Source: an uncultured Pelolinea sp. (GTDB lineage Bacteria > Chloroflexota > Anaerolineae > Anaerolineales > Anaerolineaceae). Taken from it: DNA of 64,000 nt. The first letter of the stretch is position 1, and every line of letters begins with the position of its first letter. The notes under the pieces were generated by a model. That model did no database searches and had not been told where the DNA came from. It saw nothing but the letters and a program-made list of their open reading frames with translations. The stretch covers positions 18,442-82,441 of the forward strand of contig CAYLHI010000001.1 in assembly GCA_964383575.1 (NCBI GenBank), written 5' to 3'. This document shows positions 1 through 41,182 of the stretch, piece by piece. The translations under genes were made by a program, and so were the position numbers.

Positions 1-132
1 CTTGACCATCAGGCTAAAACCGCGCTTTTCCATCGCCTGGAAGCGGGTGGAGAGTACTTCGCCGTTACGGACTTCGATCTCGACGCGCGCGTGACCTTCA
101 ATGCGGGATAAAGGAAATGTGAGAGTTGTCAT
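1..132 (-). CDS. [NiFe]-hydrogenase large subunit, N-terminal fragment (continues beyond the window)
   Basis: Reverse strand from the ATG at 132..130 reads MTTLTFPLSRIEGHARVEIEVRNGEVLSTRFQAMEKRGFSLMVK. The RIEGH signature is typical of NiFe large-subunit N-termini. The start overlaps the stop of the small-subunit gene (TGATG). Confidence 0.7.
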   Translation of the reverse strand, partial: MTTLTFPLSRIEGHARVEIEVRNGEVLSTRFQAMEKRGFSLMVK

Positions 133-1016
133 CAGAGCACCTTTTCCTTAGAGCGCGGCGGGCGGCCTGTGCCGGCATAATCAGAGAACTGGAATAAAAA
201 CAACGCCAGTTGGGGAGAGACCAGCGCTTCGCGAATCTCTTCCGGAGGAATATCCGTCAGCGCTGCAAACACACGCTGGATGCTTTCCAGCCAGGCCTTA
301 GAATCCTTCTCAATAAGCATATCAGAAGGCCCGCGGCAGCCCACACAGGGGTGGCCAGGGCGGGTGCAGAGAGCGCGGCATCCGCCCCGCGTAGAAGATC
401 CAATGCAGAGATAACCCTGGTTGATAAGGCAAATATCCGGGTCCACCTCCCCACGCTGGAAACCGGTCAGATGTTTGGGCTTCATATCTTTCAGTTTTTT
501 ACGCCCACATTCCTGGCAGACTGTTTTCGATGGCTTAAATTCTTTATCATCAAAGAGCGCCGCCATGAACAGTTCCGGAGTCGGCGGGCAGCCGGGTAGG
601 TAAAGGTCTACATCGACGAAAGCATCCACCGGCTGACTCTTAGGAAGGAGGCGCGGCAGATCACGACGCTCAGTCTGCGACATGAACAATTCACGCACCT
701 CATCGCGGTTGCCAAGGTTGGCTACACCGCCCGATATGGCGCAGGTGCCGACCGCGATTACCTTCTTGGAGAATCGCACTGCGCGCCTCAGGTTGTAGAG
801 ATCCTCATCGGAACGGACACCACCGGAAATAAGGAGCACATCTACGGGTGGAACCTCGTAGGCGCTTACGACCAGGGGCATGTACACAAGATCAAATTTT
901 TCAATCCATTCGTTAGCATTCAGCAGCGAGACCTCACAACCTGCACAGCCGGAGAGCTGCAGCACGGCAAATTGCGGCAAATCCTTATGATTCATTGAAG
1001 TTTTTGATTGCTGCAT
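132..1016 (-). CDS. [NiFe]-hydrogenase small subunit, group-3 (MvhG/VhuG/HydD-like)
   Basis: Contains 'LQLSGCAGCEVSLL', 'GTCAISGG' and 'LPGCPPTPE', plus a C-terminal Cys-rich FeS region 'CQECG...CIGSSTRGGCRALCTRPGHPCVGCRGP'. The ORF extends to 1109, but Met32 (ATG 1016..1014) has a GGGAGA RBS and is the likelier start. Confidence 0.8.
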   Translation of the reverse strand: MQQSKTSMNHKDLPQFAVLQLSGCAGCEVSLLNANEWIEKFDLVYMPLVVSAYEVPPVDVLLISGGVRSDEDLYNLRRAVRFSKKVIAVGTCAISGGVANLGNRDEVRELFMSQTERRDLPRLLPKSQPVDAFVDVDLYLPGCPPTPELFMAALFDDKEFKPSKTVCQECGRKKLKDMKPKHLTGFQRGEVDPDICLINQGYLCIGSSTRGGCRALCTRPGHPCVGCRGPSDMLIEKDSKAWLESIQRVFAALTDIPPEEIREALVSPQLALFLFQFSDYAGTGRPPRSKEKVL

Positions 1017-1170
1017 GATTGATTTTCTCCCAACTCCTATCCTTAGTATACATTGAACCATTCGCATGGCAATCGGTTGGCTGCCCAAGTTTTCTGTTAA
1101 TTCTGGCATAGGATTTGCAACTATAGAGATAAGTTCTGGTATTTAATCAGGCATGTATCAGGAGATACTT

Positions 1171-2763
1171 ATGCGCAATTTTATTTTGAAAACAACCGCT
1201 ATCCTGCTGGCAGCAGCTGCGCTGTTCGTGTGGTTCCGTACAGACGCCAGTGTACTGGCAGGCGCGAGCACGCTGGGGATGGATGACAGCAGCGGGTGGA
1301 TCACCGTGAACAGCCAGAACCCGGAGGTAATGGACACGCTGGAAGCAGCGCAGGTAAACATGCTGCAGGTCGCTCTGCCCTGGGACGCGGTTGAACTGTC
1401 GCCAGGCGCATACGCGTGGGCAGTTGACCAGGATGATGGATATACAGATTTCAACTTGTTATTCAACCGGCTGGTAAAACACGGTGTGAAGCCCGTGGTT
1501 GTCCTGAGCGGTGGACCAGTATATCTGATTAATTTATATCCCCAGCAGCCCGTTTACCGAGACCAACTGCTGGCAAGCTGGGAAAACTATGTCCGCGCGG
1601 CTGTGCAGCATTTCGGCAGCAATGTGGACCACTGGCAGATCGGCGGCGTGATCAACGACACGGCGCAGTGGGGCAGCGTGCTGTTCCCCGGCGCGGAATC
1701 CCCCAGCGCACCGCCTGACCCGGATCTATATGGAGAGATGCTGGAGATTGCGTACAACGTGATCAAATCCGCGCAGGCGAGTGATATGGTCCTGTTGGGC
1801 GAACTGGAATTCACGGGCGACTGCGCCTTTAACCCGATCAATTACCTGCAGGCGCTGAATGACCTGGATTTATGGTACGCGTTTGATGTGATCAGTTTGT
1901 CCCTGCCAGAATTGGACTCCGCCCCTGAAAACGCCGCGGTTGATTCCTGCGGGATCATACCGATTCAATTGAGCGGTATTCCGGGTGCAGACAGCCTGCG
2001 CGCCGCGGCAGATTTTGCAGAACTATCCGGTGATAAGCCGCTGTGGGTGCATGGTCTGCGCTTCTCAAATGATATGCTGGCGGCTGAAGCTGCCGCACGC
2101 GGAACCCTGGCAGAAGTAACCGCGTCTGATTATCTGGCACGCGCGAGCGGATTGTACCTTTCCTTCGGTAAAGCCGACCGGATATTCTGGTCCTTCGACC
2201 CTCTGAGCAATACGCCCGGCGTGATCGCGATGCAAACGTACGCTAATTTATCACACACACTGGGCAGCAGATATGAAGGCAGCAGCCTGCCATCCGGAAC
2301 TGACGCGTTTGCCCTGCGTTTCCGCGGCAACGGGAAGCTATCCCTGCTGGCCTGGTACACTCAGGGCGGTGAAGAAGCACTGCCGATGGTGATTGGCGGT
2401 GTAGATGGATATGACCTGCATGCCTTTTCAGCTGACAGCGCATCTCTAAAACATAAAGATGGCGTTGAATTACCAGTTGACGCAGGCGGGAGCACAGCGC
2501 TGCTGGTGAGCGAGCGCCCTGTGCTGATCAGCGGACATCCAAGCAATATCAAACAATCGGTCACGCAGACCGTGGAAGATAATACCGCTCAGGCCAGCGC
2601 GGGACTGCAGGCCAAACTGCAGAACTGGCTGCAGGCACAAAAAGCCAAAGCAGCAGTCAGCGTCGGTGATTGGGTTGCAGAACAGCAGGCCAGTTTATTA
2701 GATTCGTTACGCAGTAGTTTTGAACAGTGGCTGCGGAAGAGCCTGGGTCTCGCAAAGTTGTAA
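1171..2763 (+). CDS. secreted hypothetical protein (weak resemblance to TIM-barrel glycoside hydrolases)
   Basis: Long ORF. The second ATG (1171) follows a GGAGA RBS and yields signal-peptide-like MRNFILKTTAILLAAAALFVW. No catalytic motif that I can name with confidence. Confidence 0.5.
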   Translation: MRNFILKTTAILLAAAALFVWFRTDASVLAGASTLGMDDSSGWITVNSQNPEVMDTLEAAQVNMLQVALPWDAVELSPGAYAWAVDQDDGYTDFNLLFNRLVKHGVKPVVVLSGGPVYLINLYPQQPVYRDQLLASWENYVRAAVQHFGSNVDHWQIGGVINDTAQWGSVLFPGAESPSAPPDPDLYGEMLEIAYNVIKSAQASDMVLLGELEFTGDCAFNPINYLQALNDLDLWYAFDVISLSLPELDSAPENAAVDSCGIIPIQLSGIPGADSLRAAADFAELSGDKPLWVHGLRFSNDMLAAEAAARGTLAEVTASDYLARASGLYLSFGKADRIFWSFDPLSNTPGVIAMQTYANLSHTLGSRYEGSSLPSGTDAFALRFRGNGKLSLLAWYTQGGEEALPMVIGGVDGYDLHAFSADSASLKHKDGVELPVDAGGSTALLVSERPVLISGHPSNIKQSVTQTVEDNTAQASAGLQAKLQNWLQAQKAKAAVSVGDWVAEQQASLLDSLRSSFEQWLRKSLGLAKL

Positions 2764-2787
2764 AATATAATATAAGCGAGGTGAACC

Positions 2788-3831
2788 ATGAAAAAAACGA
2801 TCAGTAGAATAAATTTAATATTGGTGGTTTTATTGGCAGCAGCCGCCTGCCAACGGACCCCGGCTCTTCCCGCAAAAACAAGCGAACCGGTTCCAGAACA
2901 GGAATCAGCACCTGTCGTAATCGCATCGGAAAACGCGGCGACTCTTAAACAAGTTTATTCCGCATCAGTAAGCACCGGTTACATCAGCGCGAAATGGGCG
3001 GAGGACAGCACAGCAGTATGGATTATGGATTCCGAAAGCGCCGCTCTGTATGACAGTACGAGCGGTGAGAGAACCGCCCAATTCGCTCCGGGAGAGGACG
3101 TCGCCGTGTATGACGTGTCACCGGACGGGAAAACTGTGGCATATTCCCAGGATGGGTTAGAAATCCACTTATTTAATGTTTCCGCCCAGGCGGATATCCT
3201 GAGTATCGTACCTGATTTCCCCTTTTCAAACGCCTTTTTCAACACCGACGGCACCCTGCTCGGAACGGATTCGCTGGATGACATCAAGATCGTCCTGTGG
3301 GACACAGCCAGCGGCAAGGAAATGGGCAGTTTGCGCGGGTTTGGGACCGCGGCTCCCGTTTACAGCGCGATGTTTGGTATGGATGGAAAAACACTGCTGT
3401 GGTTCTCACGTGGGACCGTTCAGCCGATGGACATTGCCACGCAGGAAATGGGACCAACGCTTTCGCATGAGGATTTCGTAACCGCGAGGCAGATTTCCCC
3501 GGATGGAAAGGTTATCGCTACCACCGCGGCTGCCACGATCGGCGGAGAATTCCAACCGGTGCTGACGCTGTGGGACGCGGACAGCGGGGAAATCCTGCGG
3601 CAGAACACCATTCCGAGTTATTTCAGTTCAATCGCATTTTCTCCGGACAGCGGCCTGCTGGCAGCAGGCACGGAGAATGGGGTACTGATCTTCACCGTAC
3701 CCCGTGGCGACGAGGTCTTCCGTTTTGACAGCGCGGAAGTGGTCGCCAGCATCGCTTTCTCACCGGACGGGGTCAAGCTGATCACCTGCGGAGATGAAGG
3801 AACAATAAACATCTATGCAGTGAACGAATAA
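2788..3831 (+). CDS. lipoprotein with WD40/PD40-like beta-propeller repeats
   Basis: Lipobox 'LLAAAAC'. Repeated 'SPDGK/SPDS/SPDG' blades: VSPDGKTVAYS, ISPDGKVIAT, AFSPDSGLLAAG, AFSPDGVKLITCG. Confidence 0.7.
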   Translation: MKKTISRINLILVVLLAAAACQRTPALPAKTSEPVPEQESAPVVIASENAATLKQVYSASVSTGYISAKWAEDSTAVWIMDSESAALYDSTSGERTAQFAPGEDVAVYDVSPDGKTVAYSQDGLEIHLFNVSAQADILSIVPDFPFSNAFFNTDGTLLGTDSLDDIKIVLWDTASGKEMGSLRGFGTAAPVYSAMFGMDGKTLLWFSRGTVQPMDIATQEMGPTLSHEDFVTARQISPDGKVIATTAAATIGGEFQPVLTLWDADSGEILRQNTIPSYFSSIAFSPDSGLLAAGTENGVLIFTVPRGDEVFRFDSAEVVASIAFSPDGVKLITCGDEGTINIYAVNE

Positions 3832-3850
3832 ACTATCTGCATATCATATT

Positions 3851-3879
3851 AAACGCGCTCCGGTTGGAGCGCGTTTTTT
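3851..3879. terminator. bidirectional rho-independent terminator between convergent genes
   Basis: AAACGCGCTCC-GGTT-GGAGCGCGTTT is a perfect 11-bp stem, flanked by A-run/T-run. It abuts the polB stop codon (3878..3880). Confidence 0.7.
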
Positions 3880-6160
3880 ATTGACAACACGGTTCAGGAT
3901 ACAGCGCAGGATCAAGATGAATGACCGGGGGCGGACGACGGCGGCGCCATGTGCGCAGGGGCAGCCTGAGCTGGCAGCCAAGGTCAGCGCGCACCCAGAT
4001 AAGGAGCGCTTCCTCATCCAGCCCAAAAGGCTGGAGCAGATTAGCGGCGGCGCGGAGGATAAGTTCCTGGTAGTGGTCTACATCGACAGCAGCCGGATCG
4101 GGGGGATAGGGCAGGTCCCAGGCGTGCACGCCGGCTCCGCCGCGGATAAAGATAAGGCGCACGCGCTGCCCAGGGTAGACGGACTTACCTGCCGCCTGGA
4201 GCTGCATAACAGCCCGCGCGCCGGGAGAAGGCACCCGATAGCCAGCGAGCTGCTTGCTGAGCTTCTTGCCGACAAGTAAATCCTCAAGGGGCACACGACC
4301 GGTGCGCAGAGCATGCAGCCGGCGGCGGAGGATATCCACCGCTTCAGGCACCTGCCGCTGGAGATCAGCTGGGCTTTGGGCGCGCGCCAGGCAGCGCAGC
4401 ATCTCACACTGAGCATCAGCCACAAAAGGCGCCGCGTCGCGCCGGCGCAGATCAATGCCGCGCGCTTTAACGCTGCCATCCTGAAAAACGCCAAAGTAAC
4501 GGTTGGGCACCGGCAGGCGGTCATCCACGCGCGAGGGGAGAAAAACCACCCAGCGGTAAACGCCGTCCAGCGAGATGGGCAGGGAGGTGCGGGCGGCAAT
4601 CTCTTCCAGGAGAGGCTGAAAGTCATCAGGTTCACGGCAGCCGTCCTTCTGCACCCATAAGCCATCCACGTACATATGCAATACGCGGAAACCCATTTCT
4701 TCAGCGGCTTCCTTGGCGCGCAGGAGCGCCTCGCGCCCCCAGGTGGTAACGGCCTCATGGGCTTCTATGCGCCCGAAGCGGGCGTTCTTGTAGCCGAGAT
4801 AGCCGAAACAGGTCACCAGAAGCCATTTATGGGCTGATGAGCGCGCTTTATCCTTGCGCCGGCGCGGATCCCACTTCGGCAGGCTGAGGGCGCGCTGTTT
4901 GAGCGCGATACGCTTTTCAAGGAGGGGTTTAAGGGTGAGTGGCACCAGTCCGGGGGGATGGTCAGAACTGCCCAGGCGGTCGGGGAAGGGCGTCTCCGGA
5001 GAGATGTTGCTGCGCACCATGATAGAAGGATACATGGAGACAAAATCAATCATCCCGACATCAAAATGCAGTCCAGTGATAGGCTGGTAAACAAGCCCAC
5101 CCTGGTCGAAACGGATCAGGTCGAGGGCGGTCTTGGGGCGCTCAACCTGCTGTTTACGCCAGGGGACAAGGATATCGTTCCGCAGAGCGGTGGTAATCTG
5201 CATAGAAGAAATGCCCGTACCGGGCGACACGCGCGCGGCAATCTGAATGGGGAGAGCAGTGACACGCGCGGATTCGAGCGCGCCTTCCAGATCATAGCTC
5301 TGCCACATCATCGCATTGCGGCAGTCAATATGGCAGCGCCCGTAGAGGAGGATCTGCTGACCGCGGTAGATAATCTGCCCGTAGGAAAAGTAGGTACCCG
5401 CTTTCTTGTGCAGCACACCGCGCCCCACTTCGCGATTGAGGGGGAGGGGCAGGTTGTGCTTTTTAGCAAGCGACAGCAGGAGCGGGAGGAGCCAGGTGTC
5501 GCCGCTGACAGTCAGCAGGAGATCAGGGTCAACCCGCCGCAGCAGGGCGCGCAGGTTGATCAGCAGGGGGCGCTCCGGCTGGAGGGAGAAGCGGTATTTA
5601 TGCCCATCGTGGCGGGCGATGAGTACCTTGGGCTGGGCATGGGCCGGATCGCAGTCCGGTTTGAGAGCAAGCACACGCAGGGGCGCGCCGAGGGGATCCA
5701 GATCCCAGGGGGAATCCAGCACACGCAGTTCCCGCACGGTACCCTCATCGTCCGCGCTGATATAGCAGCGTGCCAGGGGAAAGGTACCCCAACGGGCAGC
5801 GTGGCGCAGGGTGATATTCAGATCAGCATCATAATAATCCAGCCCAGGAAAGCGGCGAGCAATCCGCTTAAAGAGGCGCGGCTGACAGATGGGAGCACTC
5901 ATTTCCACTGCCAGCAGAGTGAGGGGCTGATCATGGAACAGATCACGCCGTTGAGCGCGGTAGAGGCGCAGTTTCTCAGGCTGTGCCCGCAGGAAGCTCT
6001 GCAGAGCACGCAGCTGCTCAGGGTCACCCGCCGCATAGAACGTAACCGGAAAATCCTGCCGCAGGCGGCAGCGCTCCCCGTCATCGCCGATCAGCCAGAG
6101 AACAACGCCCTCACGGTCATCTTCGTAAAGGTCGAGCAGCCAGCCAACACGGTCAGGCAT
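3878..6160 (-). CDS. family-B DNA polymerase, exonuclease motifs degenerate (760 aa)
   Basis: Motif A 'IDFVSMYPSI'; motif-B-like 'KWLLVTCFGYLGY'; motif-C position 'VLHMYVDGLWV'; thumb 'VKARGIDLRRRD'. Start taken at MPDRVGWLLDLYEDD (ATG 6160..6158), overlapping the upstream ORF stop by 8 nt. The 925-aa ORF in the track is an out-of-context extension. Confidence 0.85.
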   Translation of the reverse strand: MPDRVGWLLDLYEDDREGVVLWLIGDDGERCRLRQDFPVTFYAAGDPEQLRALQSFLRAQPEKLRLYRAQRRDLFHDQPLTLLAVEMSAPICQPRLFKRIARRFPGLDYYDADLNITLRHAARWGTFPLARCYISADDEGTVRELRVLDSPWDLDPLGAPLRVLALKPDCDPAHAQPKVLIARHDGHKYRFSLQPERPLLINLRALLRRVDPDLLLTVSGDTWLLPLLLSLAKKHNLPLPLNREVGRGVLHKKAGTYFSYGQIIYRGQQILLYGRCHIDCRNAMMWQSYDLEGALESARVTALPIQIAARVSPGTGISSMQITTALRNDILVPWRKQQVERPKTALDLIRFDQGGLVYQPITGLHFDVGMIDFVSMYPSIMVRSNISPETPFPDRLGSSDHPPGLVPLTLKPLLEKRIALKQRALSLPKWDPRRRKDKARSSAHKWLLVTCFGYLGYKNARFGRIEAHEAVTTWGREALLRAKEAAEEMGFRVLHMYVDGLWVQKDGCREPDDFQPLLEEIAARTSLPISLDGVYRWVVFLPSRVDDRLPVPNRYFGVFQDGSVKARGIDLRRRDAAPFVADAQCEMLRCLARAQSPADLQRQVPEAVDILRRRLHALRTGRVPLEDLLVGKKLSKQLAGYRVPSPGARAVMQLQAAGKSVYPGQRVRLIFIRGGAGVHAWDLPYPPDPAAVDVDHYQELILRAAANLLQPFGLDEEALLIWVRADLGCQLRLPLRTWRRRRPPPVIHLDPALYPEPCCQ

Positions 6161-7146: not shown

Positions 7147-8349
7147 TTATTCACCTAATTCTTGTGTGGTCTCATTAAATGTTGCACAAGGCTGGTTGCC
7201 GCAAGCAAGGTACTCCAATCTTTTTTGCACATCTTGTACTAAATGACCAGGCTCTACCCACAATCCGAATTCCGCTCCGGTGGCTTGATTGATCTTGTCT
7301 GGCTGCGCGATGTTGATAGTTACAAAATTAGAAATAATCACCAGAGATAATAATAAACCCAGCACCCATTTCTTATCAGAAAAAGCGATACCGATCAAGA
7401 TCATCCAGAAAGGAATTGTTGGTATCAAATACGCGGGTTCCGTTGGCAGCCGAAAATAAAATAATTCCATGCCTACGATTAACCCAATGGATAAAATACT
7501 AATCTGAAACACCTTGTTATTAATCTTTAACTTGCCTAAAATGCCTAATCGAACTAATCCCCACATGAGGATTAAAAAAGCCGGAGGGCTCCAAAAATAG
7601 ATGCTCTTATATATAAACCGACCTGTCCTTAGATATAAACTCCAAAATTCTTCCCCGCCAATAGAAGGGAAGAAAATATGTGTTTTCCATTCGGCAAAAG
7701 TGATCGGCGGTAAATAAAAAATTAAAGACAAAATTAGCATAATCGCACCAGACAGGAAAATGCGCCTTCTATTTTGCACCTCAAACATAAAAGCCCACAG
7801 CAGCACCAAACCTGCTACTAAAGCTGTTGTCAGCCGGCTGCCAACACCCATTGCCATGCTTATACCAGCGGTAACAAATTTTCCTTCCAAGAGCATCCAG
7901 AACCCTATCATTGTAAAACCCAGTGCAAACAAGTAATCCATGGTGCAGGTGGAATTGACCAGATAATAGGGATGCACCATCATGATAACAGCTAAAAATC
8001 GATAATTAGGCACATCGTATCGCTTACATATATATATAAATATTGCTAAAATCAGCAACGACATGCACAAACTGCCAAAATTGGTCAGAAAACTGCCGCC
8101 GATAATATTTAAGAAAAAAGTGATGGTTTCATAAACAAAGAATCCAGGCACGCGGGAGGGAACATAATCAAGTGTCTCGATAAAATTTTCACCTACCCAT
8201 AACACGTTATAAGAATCATAATCGCTGCCATAGCCGAGAAAAATGAAAGGAAAATAAATAAAAAAAGCTAAGAGCAAGATGTGTAAATCTTTAGATTGTT
8301 TTATGGATTTAATTGCTTTTTTGATTTGCAAACAGACCACCTTATCCAA
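7147..8349 (-). CDS. polytopic membrane protein, possible GT-C (ArnT/PMT-like) glycosyltransferase
   Basis: 400 aa with more than 10 hydrophobic segments, strongly AT-rich. Family assignment rests on overall architecture only. Confidence 0.4.
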   Translation of the reverse strand: MDKVVCLQIKKAIKSIKQSKDLHILLLAFFIYFPFIFLGYGSDYDSYNVLWVGENFIETLDYVPSRVPGFFVYETITFFLNIIGGSFLTNFGSLCMSLLILAIFIYICKRYDVPNYRFLAVIMMVHPYYLVNSTCTMDYLFALGFTMIGFWMLLEGKFVTAGISMAMGVGSRLTTALVAGLVLLWAFMFEVQNRRRIFLSGAIMLILSLIFYLPPITFAEWKTHIFFPSIGGEEFWSLYLRTGRFIYKSIYFWSPPAFLILMWGLVRLGILGKLKINNKVFQISILSIGLIVGMELFYFRLPTEPAYLIPTIPFWMILIGIAFSDKKWVLGLLLSLVIISNFVTINIAQPDKINQATGAEFGLWVEPGHLVQDVQKRLEYLACGNQPCATFNETTQELGE

Positions 8350-8691
8350 GAATAATTATTAGTTATGCAGTTATGTGACCGCCAAATGATTACGCAACAA
8401 TTTTTTTGTAAAATTGATCACAAATCCTTCCAATTTATTCTATCATTTGTCAGCCAGTCTCCATTCTCAAAAATAATATGCCGTATTCCCATTCCTCAAT
8501 AACCTCCATCAAATTAGCTTTAATCCACCGCAAGCATTGCTGCTCATTTGCTAAATTTAAAAAAATACATGGATGAGCAAAATAATTTGGGGGACTTGCT
8601 AATTTAGCAACCATTTCTTTTACCTTCGAGAGTAGTTTGAATTGTCAGGAAACACAGCAGGGATTTTCCAATTTTTTTTCCAGAATACCCC

Positions 8692-8719
8692 TTGACAAAA
8701 TTGATAAAACTTATAAAAT
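8692..8719 (+). promoter_or_regulatory. sigma-70-type promoter of the dtxR-feoA-feoB operon
   Basis: TTGACA (8692..8697), a 16-nt spacer, then TAAAAT (8714..8719), about 50 nt upstream of the ATG at 8770. Confidence 0.5.
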
Positions 8720-8769
8720 AAGGTGTGCCTAAATATTTTAATGATTTTATATAAGGCACTCCTAATAAT

Positions 8770-9753
8770 ATGAACTCGCAAAAATTAGAGCTTTCAAGCA
8801 GCATGCAGATGTACCTGGTCAAGATTAAACGTATGGAAAGTGAGTTTAATCCAGTACCTCTTTCCCTTCTCGCAGAATCTCTGCAGATTTCTCCGGTATC
8901 CGCTAATGAGATGTGCCGGAAACTAGATGAGATGGAGCTGATCCGGTACCAACCTTACAAAGGAGCCAGTTTATCTGATGAAGGGAATCTGCAAGCTGAA
9001 AAAATCTTAAGAAATCATCGGCTCTGGGAAGTTTTTCTGGTTGAAAATCTACATTTTGATTACCTGACAGCTCATCAAATGGCGGATGATCTGGAGCACG
9101 CAACCTCCAAAGAATTGGCTGATCAACTGGATGAATTTCTCGGCTGCCCAAAATTCAACCCGGAGGGAAAAGAGATACCTGCGGGAGACAAAGCCGGCCG
9201 CAATATACAAACGATGAAACTATCGGAAATGGGGGTTGGATCCGAAGGATATTATTTCAGTGATGAACTTGATGAAAATATAGCTGAATTTTTTTCAGAT
9301 GTAAATCTCAGAAAAGGAGAGCGGCTTAAGGTGCTTGGAAAAACCTCCAGCCAAATGATCATTCAAGCCGGAGATGAATTTATTCATCTCAGCAGAGAGA
9401 TTGCTGAAAAAATCGCAACTGCAAAGTTAGAAACCAACACATCCAATGACAGCAGAGACAGCGCTGTTAATAAAACCAACAAGGAGAAGGCTATGCAAGA
9501 AAAGATAATTAAAAAGAAAACATTGAAGGATTTAAAAATAGGCCAAACAGGTGTGGTTGTCCGTGTTAAAGGAAAGGGATCCATCAAACAGCGAATGATG
9601 GATATGGGACTGGTGCCCGGAAGCGAGGTCAAAGTAATCCGCGTTGCTCCATTGGGAGACCCGATTGAAATCATGATAAAGGGATATAACCTCTCGTTGC
9701 GTAAAAGCGAAGCCCAAGATATTGAGATTGAAACCAGCGGGGAGAATGAATGA
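8770..9753 (+). CDS. DtxR/MntR-family metal-dependent repressor with C-terminal FeoA (SH3-like) domain
   Basis: N-terminus 'MQMYLVKIKRM...LAESLQISPVSANEMCRKLDEMELIRYQPYKGASLSDEGNLQAEKILRNHRLWEVFLVENL' is the DtxR HTH plus dimerisation region. C-terminus 'LKIGQTGVVVRVKGKGSIKQRMMDMGLVPGSEVKVIRVAPLGDPIEI' is FeoA-like. Confidence 0.85.
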   Translation: MNSQKLELSSSMQMYLVKIKRMESEFNPVPLSLLAESLQISPVSANEMCRKLDEMELIRYQPYKGASLSDEGNLQAEKILRNHRLWEVFLVENLHFDYLTAHQMADDLEHATSKELADQLDEFLGCPKFNPEGKEIPAGDKAGRNIQTMKLSEMGVGSEGYYFSDELDENIAEFFSDVNLRKGERLKVLGKTSSQMIIQAGDEFIHLSREIAEKIATAKLETNTSNDSRDSAVNKTNKEKAMQEKIIKKKTLKDLKIGQTGVVVRVKGKGSIKQRMMDMGLVPGSEVKVIRVAPLGDPIEIMIKGYNLSLRKSEAQDIEIETSGENE

Positions 9754-9974
9754 TGCCGCTGAGTATGGCTCCAGCAGGCACAACGCTTAAGATTGTAGGA
9801 TTCAGGGGCGGCTTTGGCATGCGCAGGCGCCTGGCTGATCTAGGAATGAATATCGGCATGGAAATATCCGTTGTATCAACCTACCAACGCGGACCATTGG
9901 TGGTCTTGATTAAAGGATCAAGGTTCGCAATCGGACGGGGAATCGCCCATCATGTTTTTGTTAAACCAAAATAA
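9750..9974 (+). CDS. feoA: ferrous iron transport protein A
   Basis: 74 aa with 'LKIVGFRGGFGMRRRLADLGMNIGMEISVV...GPLVVLIKGSRFAIGRGIA'. ATGA overlap with the upstream gene. Confidence 0.85.
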   Translation: MMPLSMAPAGTTLKIVGFRGGFGMRRRLADLGMNIGMEISVVSTYQRGPLVVLIKGSRFAIGRGIAHHVFVKPK

Positions 9975-10002
9975 GTAATCAAACAAAAAGGAGTAATTTT
10001 CG

Positions 10003-34718: not shown

Positions 34719-35417
34719 TTATTGAGAAAGCATTGAGGTGAGCGCTTTCAGCAAGGTTGAGGTAACCAATTGACTGGACTGTTCTCTATATGGAGAACTT
34801 GCCATTTGGCTGCCGGATACCAGCGCACCCGTGAGTGCTTCCAGGTTGCTTTTTCCACCCTGTTTGGCGGATAAAAAGCTCATTCCCGCACCCAACAGAT
34901 CTCCCAGATCCGGACCATCCTGCGCATCCGCTGATCCAGCGCCGGATAGTGAGCCGAGCAGATCGTCCAGACCCTCACCATCATTCTGCCCACTGGTTTT
35001 GCCGCCGCTGACCAGTGACCCCAACAGGGAACCAAGCATATCGCCCGATGCCGCTGGTTTACTGGCAGGCGCTTCTCCAGCGCCAAGGACGGTCTGCACC
35101 ATTGACATGATGCTGCCTGCATTCAGGTCTTTACCTACCATCTGTTTGGCTGCTTCATTCAAACCCTGTGCATATAATTTTCCCGAGCCGCTTTTTGCTT
35201 TACTGCGCAACAGAGATGCCGCGTACTCCAACTGGTCCGCCGGGTCTGCGTTCTTCTTTTCCTTCACCGCCTGAGTGATGACCTCAAAAATCTCGACCAT
35301 ATGATCTCCATGGTCATGATTATAAGTATCTGCCTTATTCAATGTTGTCTTACTGTCTTTCATGGTTCTTGTGACCTGGTTGAAAAGAGAAAGCAGGTCA
35401 ATTTGGTTTTTTGTCAT
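34719..35417 (-). CDS. hypothetical protein, DhaL(Dak2)-like N-terminal domain with Gly/Ser/Leu-rich tail
   Basis: 'ADTYNHDHGDHMVEIF' resembles DhaL 'GDADHGLNM', and 'SGSGKLYAQG' resembles 'GGASGPLFG'. The tail 'LGSLLGSLVSGG...LDDLLGSLSGAG' is low complexity. Confidence 0.35.
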   Translation of the reverse strand: MTKNQIDLLSLFNQVTRTMKDSKTTLNKADTYNHDHGDHMVEIFEVITQAVKEKKNADPADQLEYAASLLRSKAKSGSGKLYAQGLNEAAKQMVGKDLNAGSIMSMVQTVLGAGEAPASKPAASGDMLGSLLGSLVSGGKTSGQNDGEGLDDLLGSLSGAGSADAQDGPDLGDLLGAGMSFLSAKQGGKSNLEALTGALVSGSQMASSPYREQSSQLVTSTLLKALTSMLSQ

Positions 35418-35477: not shown

Positions 35478-36233
35478 TTAGAAATTCACCACCCAATGCT
35501 GGTATAAACCCAGGTTTCCCTCTTTCCCATCAGAATAGAAATTGCCTGCCATTGAAAAACCACTGACGCGTGCAATATCGGTTAGTTCAGATGCAGTAAA
35601 AATGTGAACAAAACGAAAAGCTTGTTTATCATGACCATCTGTTTGCTGCGCACGCCAATCCATCAATATATCGCCGTGGTCCACATCCGATGAGTTGACC
35701 CCGACACTCTCCCAGGGCTGGATGCGTTTGACCAAGCGCGGGCTGCTGTGCGGCTGCCATACGGAAATATAACAGTCTTTTCCAGCTGCCAGCAATTTCC
35801 GCATCTGCGCGCAAAGCAATTTACGTCGCGCTTCGCCTGGAATGTGATGCAGAACCGCAAAGCAAAAAATGCCATCCCATTCCACATCAGGCAGGGAATT
35901 GGTCCATTTATCCTGATTCAAATCTGCTTTCTGGAATACAATTTCCTGTCCTTCTTTAATCGGCTGCACACTTTTTTCAGCTTTCGCAACCAGACCAAAA
36001 CTAAAATCTATCCCAAAGTACAACCCTGTATATCCTTTTTGCGTCCAGGCATGTGCAAGGTTCCCATTCCCACACCCAATATCCAACCAATTTCCCTTTT
36101 TTGCAACATTTTCTAAAATACTGGAAACACCGGGCTGAATCTTTCTTCTCGTCTGGGCAAACGAGTCGGCAAAATTTTGATAGAATTCCTGATTAATGCG
36201 GTTTAATTGATCGAGTGTTTCAGCTTTCATCAT
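35478..36233 (-). CDS. Trm9/ALKBH8-like class I SAM-dependent methyltransferase
   Basis: Colinear matches to yeast Trm9 as I recall it. 'YQNFADSFAQTRRKIQPG' vs 'YNEIAPHFSQTRYKPWP'; 'LDIGCGNG'; 'FCFAVLHHIPGEARR' vs 'SIAVVHHWSTRERR'; 'YISVWQ' vs 'IYCWA'; 'FRFVHIFTASELTD' vs 'RYYHLYREGELAED'. Confidence 0.7.
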   Translation of the reverse strand: MMKAETLDQLNRINQEFYQNFADSFAQTRRKIQPGVSSILENVAKKGNWLDIGCGNGNLAHAWTQKGYTGLYFGIDFSFGLVAKAEKSVQPIKEGQEIVFQKADLNQDKWTNSLPDVEWDGIFCFAVLHHIPGEARRKLLCAQMRKLLAAGKDCYISVWQPHSSPRLVKRIQPWESVGVNSSDVDHGDILMDWRAQQTDGHDKQAFRFVHIFTASELTDIARVSGFSMAGNFYSDGKEGNLGLYQHWVVNF

Positions 36234-36278
36234 GTTTGATTATAGCTTGTACTCAGGTTGCGATAGCCGCAGTCACTT

Positions 36279-37910
36279 ATGACCGATCAAAATATTTCCT
36301 GGCAGAAATCCCGCCAATATACAGAAGAACAACTGCACACAGCAGCAATCGTGCTGGAAGAGATCCGTTCCGGTACAGACACAATGCAAGCTGTCCGCGG
36401 GCACCCTCTGAGTGAGGGTGGATATATCGCTAAGCACATGCTGGTTCATGTGTACCGGCAGAAAGTGAAAAACGGTGATTTAGAAGCAGATGATAGCCTT
36501 CTTACGCGCATCCGTATGAAACCAATACGCTCGCTTTCTGGAGTATCCACAGTAACCGTGCTTACAAAACCGTATCCTTGCCCGGGGAACTGCCTATTCT
36601 GCCCTGATGATAATCAACTCCCAAAAAGCTATCTACGGGAAGAACCCGGGGCAGCGCGGGCATTCCAGAATGAATTTGATCCTTACCGCCAGGTGCGATC
36701 CCGCCTGGATTCCTACTACGCGATCGGCCACCCAACAAACAAGATCGAACTGCTGATCTTAGGCGGATCCTGGTCTGCTTATCCTGCTGATTACCGTGAG
36801 CATTTTGTAAAACGCTGCTTTGACGCGCTGAATAGGAAAGATTCTCCTACTCTCGAAGCCGCCCAGTCATTGAACGAAAAAACAGAGAGCCGTAATGTCG
36901 GATTGGTTGTGGAAACACGACCAGACATGATCAATCCGCGGGAGATTGCTCAGATGCGGAAATTAGGCGTTACGAAAGTGCAGATGGGGGCTCAGAGCTT
37001 TGATAACGAAATCTTAGTGAAGAACCAACGCGGGCATAGTGTGGAAGACACACTGCACGCGACAGCACTGCTGCGCGCAGCCGGTTTCAAGATCGTGCTG
37101 CACTGGATGCCCAATCTGCTGGGAGCAACGCCTGAATCAGACCGGGAGGATTTCCAGCATATGTGGAATGGCGGATTCTGCCCGGATGAATTAAAGATCT
37201 ACCCTACCCAATTACTTGAAGAAGCGCCTTTATATGATTTATGGAAAGAGGGGAAATTTAAACCTTATACAACTAATGAACTGATCAGCCTTATCGCAGA
37301 TATAAAGCCCAGCATACCGATCTACTCCCGAGTCAACCGTATCGTTCGTGATATCCCGGCTAACTATATAAAAGCAGGCAGCCGCCGCTCGAGTTTGCGG
37401 CAGGATGTGCACAATGAGCTAAAGAAGCGCAGCCAGCGCTGCCGATGCATCCGCTGCCGAGAAGTGAGGGGGACAGCTGTTAATACACAGGATCTGATCT
37501 TTGAAGACTATATATATAACGCCGCATTCGCTGAAGAACACTTCCTTAATTACAGCACAACTGACGACCGCTTAGCCGGCTACCTGCGCCTGGCTATTCC
37601 ATCCGACTCTTCTGATCCTGTATTCACATCCCAGAGAAAGGTATTATTCACAATAATACCTGAATTAAAAGGTGCCGCATTGATCAGGGAAGTACACATC
37701 TACGGGCAGTCCTTAGCTGTTGGCAGCGAGCAGATCGGTGCTGCCCAGCACAGCGGATTGGGGACTATTCTGCTGAAAAAAGCCGAGCAAATAGCAAAGA
37801 AAGCCGGTTATACAGAACTGGTGGTGATTGCTGCCATCGGTACACGCTTGTATTACGAAAAACGCGGATTTATCCGCTCCGGTCTTTACATGACTAAAGA
37901 AGTCATGTAA
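36279..37910 (+). CDS. elp3: bacterial Elp3 homologue (radical SAM plus GNAT/KAT domain)
   Basis: 'KPIRSLSGVSTVTVLTKPYPCPGNCLFCPDD' (Cx3Cx2C), 'FDPYRQVRSRLD', 'IELLILGGSWSAYP', and C-terminal GNAT 'HSGLGTILLKKAEQIAKKAGY'. Confidence 0.9.
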   Translation: MTDQNISWQKSRQYTEEQLHTAAIVLEEIRSGTDTMQAVRGHPLSEGGYIAKHMLVHVYRQKVKNGDLEADDSLLTRIRMKPIRSLSGVSTVTVLTKPYPCPGNCLFCPDDNQLPKSYLREEPGAARAFQNEFDPYRQVRSRLDSYYAIGHPTNKIELLILGGSWSAYPADYREHFVKRCFDALNRKDSPTLEAAQSLNEKTESRNVGLVVETRPDMINPREIAQMRKLGVTKVQMGAQSFDNEILVKNQRGHSVEDTLHATALLRAAGFKIVLHWMPNLLGATPESDREDFQHMWNGGFCPDELKIYPTQLLEEAPLYDLWKEGKFKPYTTNELISLIADIKPSIPIYSRVNRIVRDIPANYIKAGSRRSSLRQDVHNELKKRSQRCRCIRCREVRGTAVNTQDLIFEDYIYNAAFAEEHFLNYSTTDDRLAGYLRLAIPSDSSDPVFTSQRKVLFTIIPELKGAALIREVHIYGQSLAVGSEQIGAAQHSGLGTILLKKAEQIAKKAGYTELVVIAAIGTRLYYEKRGFIRSGLYMTKEVM

Positions 37911-37939: not shown

Positions 37940-38719
37940 ATGCCCTTTTGCGCCGAACTGTTTTATCGTTATTATGATAGGGGGGCAGCATCCTATGCCT
38001 ATCCAACACTCTATCTACACGGCCTGGGAGGTACTCATTTATCATGGCCGCATACTCTGCGGCGGCTCCCTGGGAAGCGTATATATGCGCTCGATCTGCC
38101 GGGACACGGCCTCTCTGATACCCCCGCCTGCTGCAGCACACACGAGCTAACCGATCATCTGCACAGATTCATCACTGAGTTAGGCATATTCAGCTTTGCT
38201 CTGGTTGGCCATTCCATGGGAAGCGCGGCCGCTTTTGATTATTCCGCCGCATACCCGGAACACATCCGCGGATTGGCGCTCATTTCATGTGGGCACATCT
38301 TTCGCTTTTCAGAAGAACTTATGTATTCCCTTAAAAGTGAAGCATCCAGGAAAAATGTAATCGAGTTTTTTAACAACAAGGGGTTTCACCCTGAGTTTTC
38401 TCAATCTCTCCGACGGAAGATACTGGAACCATTAAATTGCATCCGAATCAGTGTCCTGCAAGCTGATATTAAAATTTACAGTTCCTTCTCCGCTTACCGC
38501 TCATTAAATAAATTCACTTTTCCTGTTCAGCTAATCGCAGGCAGAAATGACAAGCTGGTACCTTCAACGGACATACAGCAGTTGAAATACCACCTGCCAA
38601 ACGCGTCTCTGTGTACCTTAGACCAATGCGGGCATATGGCCATCTTTGAAAAAACAGAGGTGATTAAAAAAACGCTGCAGGCTTTTCTTGAAAAAGTTAC
38701 TTCCCCTGTTTACCAATGA
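37940..38719 (+). CDS. alpha/beta-fold hydrolase
   Basis: 'LHGLGG' and nucleophile elbow 'GHSMGS'. C-terminal 'CGHMAIFE' supplies the His. Confidence 0.8.
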   Translation: MPFCAELFYRYYDRGAASYAYPTLYLHGLGGTHLSWPHTLRRLPGKRIYALDLPGHGLSDTPACCSTHELTDHLHRFITELGIFSFALVGHSMGSAAAFDYSAAYPEHIRGLALISCGHIFRFSEELMYSLKSEASRKNVIEFFNNKGFHPEFSQSLRRKILEPLNCIRISVLQADIKIYSSFSAYRSLNKFTFPVQLIAGRNDKLVPSTDIQQLKYHLPNASLCTLDQCGHMAIFEKTEVIKKTLQAFLEKVTSPVYQ

Positions 38720-38722
38720 TAA

Positions 38723-39922
38723 TTATAAGTATTCTTTAAGCTGTCTGGAATGCTGTGGGTGGCGTAGATGGCGCAGGGCTTTGGTTTCTATCTGGCGGAT
38801 ACGCTCACGTGTAAGCCCGAATTTTCGCCCAACTTCTTCCAGCGTGTAGAAACGGCCGTTCTCCAATCCGAACCGAAGGCGTAATATGCGCGCTTCACGA
38901 TAGGGCAGCGAATCGAGGATATCCTCGATCTTTTCACTGAGTAATTTTGTGTATACCTTCTGGCTGGGAGTAGGTGTATTCCGGTCTTCCACAAAATTGC
39001 CTAATTCCGATTCTTCTTCATTATCATTGATAGGGCTTTCCAGCGATAAGGGCAGCCAGGAAACCTGGACCATCCATTCAACTTTATCTGTAGGCAGATC
39101 TAATATTTTCGCCAGTTCTTCGATGTTTGGTTCCCTGCCCAGCCTTTGTTCCATTTCATGGATGTATTTGTACATCACGCGGATGCGGTCAACCATATGC
39201 ACAGGCACGCGAATCGTGCGGCCCTGGTCAGCAATTGCCCGAGTGATTGTTTGGCGAATCCACCAGGTGGCGTAGGTTGAGAACCGAAATCCACGGGAAT
39301 AATCAAATTTCTCGACTGCCTTCATCAAGCCCAGATTGCCCTCCTGGATAAGATCAAGAAAAGGCACACCGCGCCTGTTATACCGTTTGGCCACGCTCAC
39401 TACTAAACGGGTATTCGCCTTAATAAGGTGTTCCCGTGCTAACAATCCATCTTCAATAATCTCCTCAAGCATTTTCCTCTTTTCAGGAGGATTATTTTTT
39501 CCCAGCTTGATGAGTTCTTCTTTCGCTGCTCGCCCATTTTCGTATCGTTTGGCAAGGCTGACTTCCTGTTCCTTTTTAAGGAGTGGGACTTTGCTCATTT
39601 CCCGCAAATACAAAGTGATGGTGTCATCGCTGGCTACTTTTTCAACTCCGGCGACCACAACCTCATCCGCTCCCAAATCACTCTCTTCTTCCTGGTCGAA
39701 GCCATTGGCAGATAACACTTCCACTTCTTTTGGAAAAACGACCTGGACACCCTGGCGATTGAGAATACCCACCATTTCCTCAATTCTTTCCGCATTTACG
39801 CCGCTTCGCGGAATGATCTCTTCAAGGTCTTCCAATGTAACATGTCCTTGAAGGCTGGCTTTTTCAAGCAGCATGCCTAATACTGATTCTCTTTTATCAT
39901 CTTCAGGAAACGCTGCTTTCAA
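38723..39922 (-). CDS. rpoD: primary RNA polymerase sigma factor (RpoD/SigA)
   Basis: 'NTRLVVSVAKRY', 'DLIQEGNLGLMKAVEKFDYSRGFRFSTYATWWIRQTITRAIADQGRTIRVPVHM' and 'LTRERIRQIETKALRHLR'. TTG start. Confidence 0.9.
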   Translation of the reverse strand: MKAAFPEDDKRESVLGMLLEKASLQGHVTLEDLEEIIPRSGVNAERIEEMVGILNRQGVQVVFPKEVEVLSANGFDQEEESDLGADEVVVAGVEKVASDDTITLYLREMSKVPLLKKEQEVSLAKRYENGRAAKEELIKLGKNNPPEKRKMLEEIIEDGLLAREHLIKANTRLVVSVAKRYNRRGVPFLDLIQEGNLGLMKAVEKFDYSRGFRFSTYATWWIRQTITRAIADQGRTIRVPVHMVDRIRVMYKYIHEMEQRLGREPNIEELAKILDLPTDKVEWMVQVSWLPLSLESPINDNEEESELGNFVEDRNTPTPSQKVYTKLLSEKIEDILDSLPYREARILRLRFGLENGRFYTLEEVGRKFGLTRERIRQIETKALRHLRHPQHSRQLKEYL

Positions 39923-39936
39923 TGTAATCCTTTCTT

Positions 39937-40485
39937 TCAGGTGGCGAGTGTTTCAGTTGTTGGATTTTTTTCCCTTGGTTCTTTTTGACCAGTGTTTTTT
40001 CTGTTATTCCCTACTCTGCGGTTCCGGTAGTGCTCACAAACAGCCTGGTTGAGGTTCTGCCCGCAGATATCACATAATCCCTTGCATTCAGGTTGACAGA
40101 CTGGATTGATGGGCATTTCCATCAACATGTAATCATGGAGAATCGGTTCAAAATTAATATTGCCGTCCTCAGGCACTTTTATCTCATCTTCCGATGGTTC
40201 TACATAAGGAAAAGTAAAAAATTCTTCAAATTCTGAATGGATTTTTTCCTGAAAGGTTTCCAAACAACGGCTGCATTCTCTTTCCACTTCCGCATTAAAG
40301 ACAGCCTGCGCCCTGATCCCGTCGTGTGTACGGATGAGATCGATTGATCCATTGACAGCGCGCAGAGATAATCCATCCCCCATATCAATCTCATCCAATT
40401 CAAAAGGCAGAACACGTGAATATCCGATGGGTTGATTAATAAGAAAGCCGATGTTGATGTAGAAAGGATTTCGCGACGGATTCAA
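39937..40485 (-). CDS. yceD: YceD/DUF177 family protein
   Basis: 'CSRCLETF' and 'CQPECKGLCDICGQNLN...CEH'. Confidence 0.8.
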   Translation of the reverse strand: MNPSRNPFYINIGFLINQPIGYSRVLPFELDEIDMGDGLSLRAVNGSIDLIRTHDGIRAQAVFNAEVERECSRCLETFQEKIHSEFEEFFTFPYVEPSEDEIKVPEDGNINFEPILHDYMLMEMPINPVCQPECKGLCDICGQNLNQAVCEHYRNRRVGNNRKNTGQKEPREKNPTTETLAT

Positions 40486-40582
40486 GATAATTCCAATAAA
40501 ATTAGTATAATTTACACGATTATAGCACGCGGATATTTACCAGTCAAGTTTTTATAAAAATATTCATAAAAATTAACATTCC

Positions 40583-41182
40583 ATGATTAAAACTATCCTT
40601 ATTGCCACAGCCAATAAAGGGAAACAAGCCGAGATTTTCGCACTGCTTGAAAATAAAATTTGCATCCTACGCGCACCCCAGGACCTGTCTATCTCCCTTA
40701 AGGTAAATGAAATAGGAAGCACTTATGCAGAAAACGCTCGTTTGAAGGCAACTGCTTATTGCAAAGCAAGCGGGCTGCCTGCACTGGCAGATGATACCGG
40801 GCTGGAAGTGGATGCCTTAGATGGAGCACCGGGGGTGTTTTCCGCACGTTTCTCCCCAAATCCGAACGCATCAGACGCAGACCGGCGCGCGCTGCTGATC
40901 AGCAAATTAAAGAGTATATCCGGGCCATGGACAGCACGCTTTGTATGCACAATGGCACTAGCACTACCAAACGGCAATATATATTATTCGCACGGCATCT
41001 GCAGAGGTGAGATCATCCCAGAAGAACGGGGAAACGGGGGGTTTGGGTATGACCCTGTTTTCCTATGTGAGGGTACCAATCGCACGTTGGCTGAACTTGG
41101 TATGCCTGAAAAGAACCACATCAGCCACCGCGCAAAAGCCGCAATGGGAATTCTGCCCTATATCCGCTCAGCGCTCACCTAG
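40583..41182 (+). CDS. rdgB: non-canonical purine NTP pyrophosphatase (RdgB/HAM1)
   Basis: 'IATANKGKQAEI', 'DDTGLEVDALDGAPGVFSARF', 'GGFGYDPVF' and 'SHRAKA'. Confidence 0.9.
   Translation: MIKTILIATANKGKQAEIFALLENKICILRAPQDLSISLKVNEIGSTYAENARLKATAYCKASGLPALADDTGLEVDALDGAPGVFSARFSPNPNASDADRRALLISKLKSISGPWTARFVCTMALALPNGNIYYSHGICRGEIIPEERGNGGFGYDPVFLCEGTNRTLAELGMPEKNHISHRAKAAMGILPYIRSALT

Follow-up and report, generated by a model that had tools for sequence, protein, structure and literature searches.

A divergent gene pair coding for a homologue of Elp3 and a methyltransferase related to Trm9 is found in a 64,000-nucleotide stretch of DNA (referred to below as the window) from an uncultured Pelolinea sp. 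of the phylum Chloroflexota (class Anaerolineae; GenBank assembly GCA_964383575.1). The two enzymes are predicted to make a tRNA wobble-uridine (U34) modification of the 5-methoxycarbonylmethyluridine (mcm5U) type, a reading to which we assign a probability of about 0.7; judged by the enzymes that are encoded, the likely product is mcm5(s2)U34, s2 standing for the 2-thio group. As the usual bacterial U34 enzymes are absent, the organism probably makes a tRNA modification that is unreported from bacteria in the literature searched. Across Chloroflexota, Elp3 is invariably accompanied by a relative of Trm9 and is never found together with MnmG, which is the pattern expected of a working replacement pathway. 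The aspects that stand out are the diverged Trm9 subfamily, the long N terminus of a bacterial Elp3, and the complete co-occurrence statistics for Chloroflexota.

An earlier note on this DNA, made from its letters alone, had proposed such a pathway and had remarked that mcm5U-type modification is not established in bacteria. Two reviews agree on the latter point. According to the 2017 review of Trm112 (PMC5372719), no bacterial genes similar to the Trm112-partner methyltransferases are detectable, and according to the 2020 review of Elp3 (PMC7663514), bacterial Elp3 is limited to Dehalococcoides. A 2026 paper refers to the presence of Elp3 in “numerous bacteria” and leaves bacterial Trm9 unmentioned. 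No paper linking Elp3 with Anaerolineae, Patescibacteria, or Coriobacteriia was found in the literature searched.

Relation of the methyltransferase to Trm9

Pfam searches with the methyltransferase return only generic methyltransferase domains, and no curated family model is passed. The best NCBIfam matches, CpaM, UbiE, and UbiG, are all below threshold (29 to 37 bits) and are confined to the half of the protein that binds S-adenosylmethionine (SAM). The best match in the PDB is Trm9 of the yeast Yarrowia lipolytica (5cm2_Z), both for the single sequence (E value of 7.8e-6, residues 26 to 230) and for the profile of its 30-member family (1.4e-12, positions 25 to 234); the runners-up cover the N-terminal half only. 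In HHalign, this family, an “Anaerolineales-type” subfamily designated here A1, aligns with 20 fungal Trm9 sequences (A2), collected starting from the residues of the Yarrowia protein, over 192 columns or nearly the full length, with a probability of 99.4% and an E value of 1.5e-21. When a hidden Markov model (HMM) of fungal Trm9 is run against the six-frame open reading frames (ORFs) of the genome, the ORF in the window comes first, with 49.7 bits versus 21.8 for the next one. The AlphaFold (AF2) model is of high confidence, with a predicted local distance difference test (pLDDT) score of 90.9, and has a Rossmann-type strand order.

The resemblance to Trm9 that the earlier note had read from a set of short motifs holds up over nearly the whole length, as the quoted motif pairs all fall in aligned HHalign columns. 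These pairs are FAQTRRKIQPG and FSxTRYKPWP, GCGNG in both proteins, AVLHH..RR and AVIHH..ERR, ISVWQ and IYVWALEQ, and RFVHIFTASEL and RYYHLYRxGEL, with the window sequence given first. The Trm9-matching motifs are invariant across 30 members of the family; together with the HHalign E value and the recurrence of the gene pair in other genomes (see below), this places the resemblance beyond coincidence. Some family members are already labelled “TRM9” in the automated annotation of the Joint Genome Institute (JGI). The nearest relatives that carry a name come from metagenome-assembled genomes labelled Pelolinea, Brevefilum, Anaerolineaceae, and Anaerolineales. On the choice between Trm9 and the UbiE or SmtA families, which the same note had raised, the PDB, HHalign, and reciprocal HMM searches favor Trm9, UbiE and UbiG remain below threshold, and the phylogenetic tree discussed below is uninformative. 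Identity with UbiE (30.7 bits versus a cutoff of 216) or UbiG (29.4 bits versus 103), both matching in the N-terminal half only, was rejected, as was identity with CmoM (SmtA) or MnmM, for which no model matched (the CmoM threshold being an E value of ≤0.01).

The longer members of the A1 family contain no Trm112 or tRNA-binding domain as a fusion partner; the additional domains are limited to DUF559, present as an insertion, and GNAT, present as a fusion. Thus, P0127, P0135, and P0136 carry an in-frame DUF559 (Vsr-like endonuclease) domain between the SAM-binding and C-terminal halves, and the 429-aa P0158 has an additional GNAT acetyltransferase domain at the C terminus.

Predicted active site

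Eight active-site residues of yeast Trm9, Y18, R29, D72, H115, H116, W145, W168, and R241, are matched by invariant residues of the subfamily. Specifically, Y18 and R29 have the same numbers in the window protein, D72, the acidic residue that binds SAM, corresponds to D76, the H115/H116 pair to H129/H130, W145 to W159, W168 to W193, and R241 to R207. Mutants of yeast Trm9 in R29, D72, H116, W145, W168, or R241 have lost their activity or retain a strongly lowered one (PMC4678810). The Arg equivalent to R241 is present in all four aligned groups. In addition to these shared positions, the A1 subfamily has invariant residues of its own, including W110, Q160, R166, R170, R194, and the S234-D235-G236 stretch, as well as insertions that follow motif I and others that surround strand β3, the strand that binds Trm112 in Trm9.

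Co-occurrence of Elp3, Trm9-like proteins, and MnmG

The phyletic distribution of Elp3, the two Trm9-like subfamilies, and MnmG was analyzed in 301 Chloroflexota genomes. Elp3 is encoded in 57 of them. The A1 methyltransferase is found in 33 genomes, all of which are Elp3 positive, and a second Trm9-like subfamily (A3) is found in exactly the other 24. Accordingly, a Trm9-like gene accompanies Elp3 in 57 of 57 genomes and is seen in none of the 244 Elp3-negative ones. In 50 of these 57 genomes, the two genes are direct neighbors in head-to-head orientation; in the remaining seven, they lie on different contigs. The co-conservation that the earlier note had proposed to check is therefore complete in this sample. 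MnmG, in turn, is encoded in 134 of the 301 genomes, none of them Elp3 positive (Fisher test, 1.5e-17). Elp3 and MnmG exclude each other among these genomes, from which we infer a functional replacement of MnmE/MnmG.

The A3 subfamily represents an independent case of adjacency between Elp3 and a Trm9-like gene. In 15 of 16 Dehalococcoidia-type Elp3 neighborhoods, Elp3 adjoins a divergent ORF of ~225 aa; these ORFs score 60 to 88 bits with the fungal Trm9 HMM, above their match to the A1 profile. The best PDB match of the A3 profile is again Trm9 (9.3e-22), and HHalign gives E values of 7.3e-33 for A3 versus fungal Trm9 and 3.7e-23 for A3 versus A1. By these profile comparisons, A3 is the subfamily closer to fungal Trm9 and the A1 subfamily of the window is the more diverged one. 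A Dehalococcoidia-type Elp3 without a methyltransferase was considered and ruled out: the A1 profile, at an E value of ≤1e-15, misses the A3 members.

Within the order to which the window belongs, conservation of gene order extends beyond the pair itself, so that inherited order alone could explain the adjacency there. In two distant family members (at loci L095 and L096), however, Elp3 is still the neighbor, although the rest of the flanking genes are unrelated. These observations bear on the possibility that the methyltransferase acts on a small molecule or a lipid, like UbiE, UbiG, or SmtA, and stands next to Elp3 through a gene order that was inherited and has no functional meaning. Such an explanation would fit the generic Pfam matches, the lead of CpaM, UbiE, and UbiG among the NCBIfam models, and the conserved surroundings within the order. 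It is nevertheless highly improbable, because those NCBIfam scores compare with cutoffs of 103 to 216 bits and concern the SAM-binding half alone, the pair persists where its flanks differ completely and recurs in another lineage, where it involves the other Trm9 subfamily, and the methyltransferase gene is never seen without Elp3.

The strict co-occurrence and adjacency show that the two proteins are functionally linked but not what the nature of the link is. The methyltransferase might be tied to Elp3 by acting on a different tRNA position, by acting on Elp3 itself, or through regulation. We consider this very unlikely, as the resemblance of the protein to Trm9 goes beyond the SAM-binding fold and includes the catalytic residues and the half that binds the substrate.

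The same pair is also found outside Chloroflexota bins, at locus L021 on a 3,146-bp contig (JAUSBL010000062.1) binned as “Candidatus Latescibacterota,” where Elp3 is 63.5% identical to the one in the window. Mis-binning of an Anaerolineae contig is one possible explanation, and transfer is another.

The Elp3 protein

On sequence criteria, the membership of the window protein in the Elp3 family is beyond doubt. It scores 471.8 bits with the curated model TIGR01211 (cutoff, 350 bits), covering positions 46 to 521 of 522, and contains the Radical_SAM (PF04055), Radical_SAM_C (PF16199), and GNAT (PF00583) domains of Pfam. The PDB matches include Elp3 of Methanocaldococcus infernus (1.6e-108) and of Dehalococcoides mccartyi (1.2e-106), as well as the eukaryotic Elongator. 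Together with the cysteines that line up in an alignment of 26 bacterial Elp3s, 16 of them of the Dehalococcoidia type, these matches bear out the description of the protein as a full-length Elp3 with a CPGNCLFC radical-SAM motif and a GNAT domain. The second Cys triad corresponds to the zinc site described for bacterial and archaeal Elp3 (PMC6367351). Assignment to MnmL (YtqA/YhcC) was rejected, since the protein scores 52.7 bits with TIGR01212, against a cutoff of 180, and has a GNAT domain.

The matches to TIGR01211 and to PDB entries start at about residues 69 to 82, and the N-terminal extension of ~80 aa that precedes them is conserved in the Elp3s that are partnered with an A1-type methyltransferase. 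It is absent in all 16 Dehalococcoidia-type Elp3s, which begin directly at the “RTISGV” strand. With 10 Lys or Arg and 11 Asp or Glu residues, the extension is roughly charge neutral, whereas the N termini described for archaeal and eukaryotic Elp3 are basic. That the D. mccartyi protein (DmcElp3) has little activity and binds tRNA weakly has been ascribed in part to its short N terminus (PMC7663514). The Anaerolineae Elp3, which is extended at the N terminus relative to DmcElp3, may therefore serve better as a model of the bacterial enzyme.

Early proposals had Elp3 acting as a histone acetyltransferase, and DmcElp3 is only weakly active in vitro (PMC7663514). A role of the window protein as an acetyltransferase for proteins or other substrates, with the pair having nothing to do with the wobble uridine, has, however, a minimal chance of being correct: acetyl-CoA hydrolysis by bacterial, archaeal, and yeast Elp3 requires tRNA as a trigger (PMC6367351), and both the exclusion of MnmG and the Trm9-related partner point to U34.

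Other U34 modification enzymes and Trm112

The source genome (2.4 Mb in 58 contigs) is estimated to be 94% complete. A profile search finds no match to MnmG in it, and matches to MnmE are limited to GTPase domains scoring below the cutoff. The absence of mnmE and mnmG, suggested in the earlier note as something to look for, thus applies to this genome, and for MnmG it extends to all 57 Elp3-encoding genomes. MnmA, the bacterial 2-thiolase, is present (339.5 bits). Aragorn predicts 37 tRNAs, and those with U34 include Gln-UUG, Glu-UUC, Lys-UUU, Gly-UCC, Arg-UCG, Leu-UAG, Pro-UGG, Ser-UGA, and Val-UAC. There is also a gene for selenocysteine tRNA, tRNA-SeC (UCA), which indicates that the organism probably uses selenocysteine.

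The window contains no Trm112-like gene, in agreement with the remark in the earlier note that none is visible next to the pair, and no Trm112-like zinc ribbon is encoded by the small ORFs that adjoin the pair at L095 and L096, the two distant loci. A free-standing homologue is nevertheless encoded elsewhere in the genome. There are three matches to the Trm112 domain, all on other contigs: a free-standing Trm112-like zinc-ribbon protein of ~72 aa (C43:13096-13350, minus strand) and two class I methyltransferases with a fused Trm112 domain, which is N-terminal in one of them and C-terminal in the other (C28:18944-19972, plus strand, and C29:9013-9903, minus strand). Reviews call the function of bacterial Trm112 unknown. 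The methyltransferase of the pair is a candidate partner for the widespread bacterial homologues of Trm112.

Proposed pathway

The pair probably represents a self-contained module for modification of the tRNA wobble uridine, of the archaeal and eukaryotic type. In the first step, Elp3, acting alone and independently of the remaining Elongator subunits, would use its radical-SAM and acetyl-CoA-binding domains to add a carboxymethyl group to C5 of U34, giving 5-carboxymethyluridine (cm5U). Family membership and the work on archaeal and bacterial Elp3 (PMC6367351) argue for this step. In the second step, the neighboring Trm9-like enzyme would methylate the carboxyl group of cm5U with SAM, producing mcm5U, as suggested by the conserved Arg, His, and Tyr residues that position the carboxylate and by the strict co-occurrence of the two genes. 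In the third step, MnmA would add the 2-thio group on the Gln-UUG, Glu-UUC, and Lys-UUU tRNAs, yielding a hybrid mcm5s2U. The module as a whole would take the place of the MnmE/MnmG route that is missing in this lineage.

A broader scenario is that two large lineages of Chloroflexota, namely the Anaerolineae order that has the long-N-terminus Elp3 and the Dehalococcoidia-type genomes, swapped MnmE/MnmG for Elp3 and Trm9, with MnmA contributing to a hybrid mcm5(s2)U34 in split codon boxes, and that the Trm9 subfamily of the window may be free of Trm112. This scenario is tentative, its odds falling somewhat short of even. Independence from Trm112 is suggested by the insertions that surround the strand binding Trm112 in yeast.

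Several observations weigh against the assignment of mcm5U as the product. According to the 2020 review, direct evidence for 5-carboxymethyluridine derivatives at U34 (xcm5U34) in bacteria is lacking, the hosts being hard to grow (PMC7663514). The methyltransferase is just 24% identical to fungal Trm9 in the HHalign alignment. A Foldseek search of the PDB ranks Trm9 fourth, with E values nearly identical to those of many unrelated class I methyltransferases, so that the fold does not single out Trm9. A tree of the family, fungal Trm9, and the class I methyltransferases of the genome is saturated, with branches of 3 to 9 substitutions per site, and in it Trm9 is joined to the outgroups by long-branch attraction. 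Eukaryotic Trm9 needs Trm112, yet the pair has no linked Trm112 gene. The genomes counted for co-occurrence are phylogenetically non-independent, and the counts probably reflect a few ancestral events. Furthermore, 110 of the 301 genomes, some of them incomplete assemblies, have neither MnmG nor Elp3 at an E value of ≤1e-30, so that the absence of MnmG alone does not demand a replacement and the mutual exclusion is not a proof of one.

In the active site, the residue equivalent to Y243 of yeast Trm9 is Val (V209), invariant in the A1-type subfamily, and the yeast Y243A mutant retains ~10% of the wild-type activity. The equivalent of N271, which is involved in uracil recognition, is not confidently placed, as the HHalign alignment stops short of it and the MAFFT alignment has a gap there; the conserved N240 is two residues out of register with the yeast position. 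The Tyr is retained in the Dehalococcoidia-type proteins, as it is in fungal Trm9. Together with the subfamily insertions, the Val-for-Tyr change leaves room for a modified product or for Trm112 independence.

The methyltransferase might therefore act on the tRNA-borne product of Elp3 and yet give something other than mcm5U, with the diverged active site accommodating another xcm5U derivative or another methyl acceptor on the side chain. The invariant V209 where the Dehalococcoidia type keeps Tyr, the many invariant residues that are peculiar to the subfamily, and the existence of other Elp3-dependent derivatives in archaea, such as 5-carbamoylmethyluridine (ncm5U) in Thermoplasma (PMC5372719), all speak for this alternative. 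It is still unlikely, since R29, H130, R207, and Y18, the proposed carboxylate-holding residues, are all kept, and unchanged chemistry, with mcm5U as the product, is the simplest expectation. Anaerolineae include cultured strains, so that the question could be answered by nucleoside mass spectrometry.

Relation to known systems

The closest characterized relatives of the methyltransferase are the tRNA (carboxymethyluridine(34)-5-O)-methyltransferases, that is, the fungal Trm9-Trm112 (Saccharomyces cerevisiae; Y. lipolytica, 5CM2) and the methyltransferase domain of animal ALKBH8. The window enzyme has in common with Trm9 and ALKBH8 the class I SAM fold, ~190 homologous columns that include the substrate-binding C-terminal half, and the partnership with Elp3. 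It differs from fungal Trm9 in its low sequence identity, the Val in place of Y243, the insertions, the lack of a linked Trm112, the bacterial host, and its being encoded head to head with Elp3.

In archaea, Elp3 and Trm9 genes are clustered in Sulfolobus, and an active Trm9-Trm112 complex (HVO_1032-Trm112) exists in Haloferax volcanii (PMC6144793, PMC5372719). By its published description, the archaeal system resembles that of the window in having an Elp3 that stands alone, with Elongator subunits 1, 2, and 4 to 6 missing, a prokaryotic relative of Trm9, and clustered genes. In contrast to the archaeal system, the window pair resides in a bacterial host that lacks MnmE/MnmG and has the bacterial thiolase MnmA.

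DmcElp3 (PDB entries 5L7J and 6IA6) comes from the same phylum and has the same radical-SAM, zinc, and acetyl-CoA motifs as the window Elp3. The Dehalococcoidia-type pair also shows the head-to-head arrangement of Elp3 and the Trm9-like gene; unlike it, the window pair has the N-terminal extension in Elp3 and a more diverged methyltransferase subfamily. The bacterial MnmE/MnmG (plus MnmC) pathway to 5-(carboxy)methylaminomethyluridine, (c)mnm5U34, serves the same tRNA position, has the same role in decoding of split boxes, and is likewise combined with thiolation by MnmA, but its enzymes and chemistry are unrelated to those of the window. MnmL/MnmM (YtqA/YtqB) offers a parallel in that a radical-SAM protein related to the radical-SAM domain of Elp3 is paired with a methyltransferase; these proteins, however, act downstream of MnmEG, which is absent from the genome of the window. 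CmoM (SmtA) is a carboxyl methyltransferase that acts on a U34 side chain, as is predicted for the window methyltransferase.

Sequence features and neighborhood of the pair

The positions of the two genes and of their conserved motifs are listed in Table 1.

Table 1. Features of the Elp3/Trm9-like gene pair, with positions counted from the first nucleotide of the window
Feature	Position	Strand	Basis or comment
Trm9-like class I SAM methyltransferase, 251 aa	35478..36233	-	Diverged “Anaerolineales-type” subfamily (alignment A1)
R207-F208-V209-H210, equivalent to Trm9 R241-Y242-Y243-H244	35604..35615	-	Arg kept, Y243 replaced by Val
H129-H130, equivalent to yeast Trm9 H115/H116	35844..35849	-	Alignments; H116 essential for activity (PMC4678810)
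SAM-binding motif I, LDIGCGNG, aa 50-57	36063..36086	-	Invariant in A1; aligned with Trm9 “LDVGCGNG”
Divergent intergenic spacer, 45 bp	36234..36278		ORF coordinates
Elp3 homologue, 543 aa, radical SAM + GNAT; tRNA U34 carboxymethyl-forming enzyme family	36279..37910	+	TIGR01211
N-terminal extension of Elp3, ~80 aa	36279..36518	+	Elp3 alignment; ahead of curated-model and PDB matches
Radical-SAM cysteine triad C101-x3-C105-x2-C108 (CPGNCLFC)	36579..36602	+	Kept in 26/26 aligned Elp3s
Cys triad C388/C390/C393 (CRCIRC), Zn-binding motif of prokaryotic Elp3	37440..37457	+	Elp3 alignment
Acetyl-CoA-binding motif QHSGLG, aa 490-495, GNAT domain	37746..37763	+	QHxGxG in 26/26 Elp3s

The start codons of the two genes face each other in the ORF list, and both the divergent orientation and the length of the gap match exactly what had first been noted. 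The spacers in related loci are ~18 to 47 bp long. A promoter scan of the spacer reveals no promoter-like sites in excess of the shuffled expectation.

At 60 bp downstream of the methyltransferase gene and on the same strand (positions 34719-35417, minus strand) lies a gene for a 232-aa protein whose N-terminal domain matches DAK2/DhaL weakly (29 bits) and whose tail is rich in Gly, Ser, and Asp. A clear homologue of this protein occupies the same position in locus L094, and none is found in the distant loci L095 and L096. On the other side, next to Elp3, positions 37940-41182 encode an α/β-hydrolase, a sigma-70 factor, a YceD-like protein, and a Ham1-like protein, in an order that is kept in L094. 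The methyltransferase of L094 is only 48% identical to the one in the window, yet the flanking gene order is kept. The GC content of the window is 0.54 to 0.61 over positions 1 to 6000, drops sharply to 0.39 over positions 8001 to 10000, and is ~0.44 to 0.50 in the remainder.

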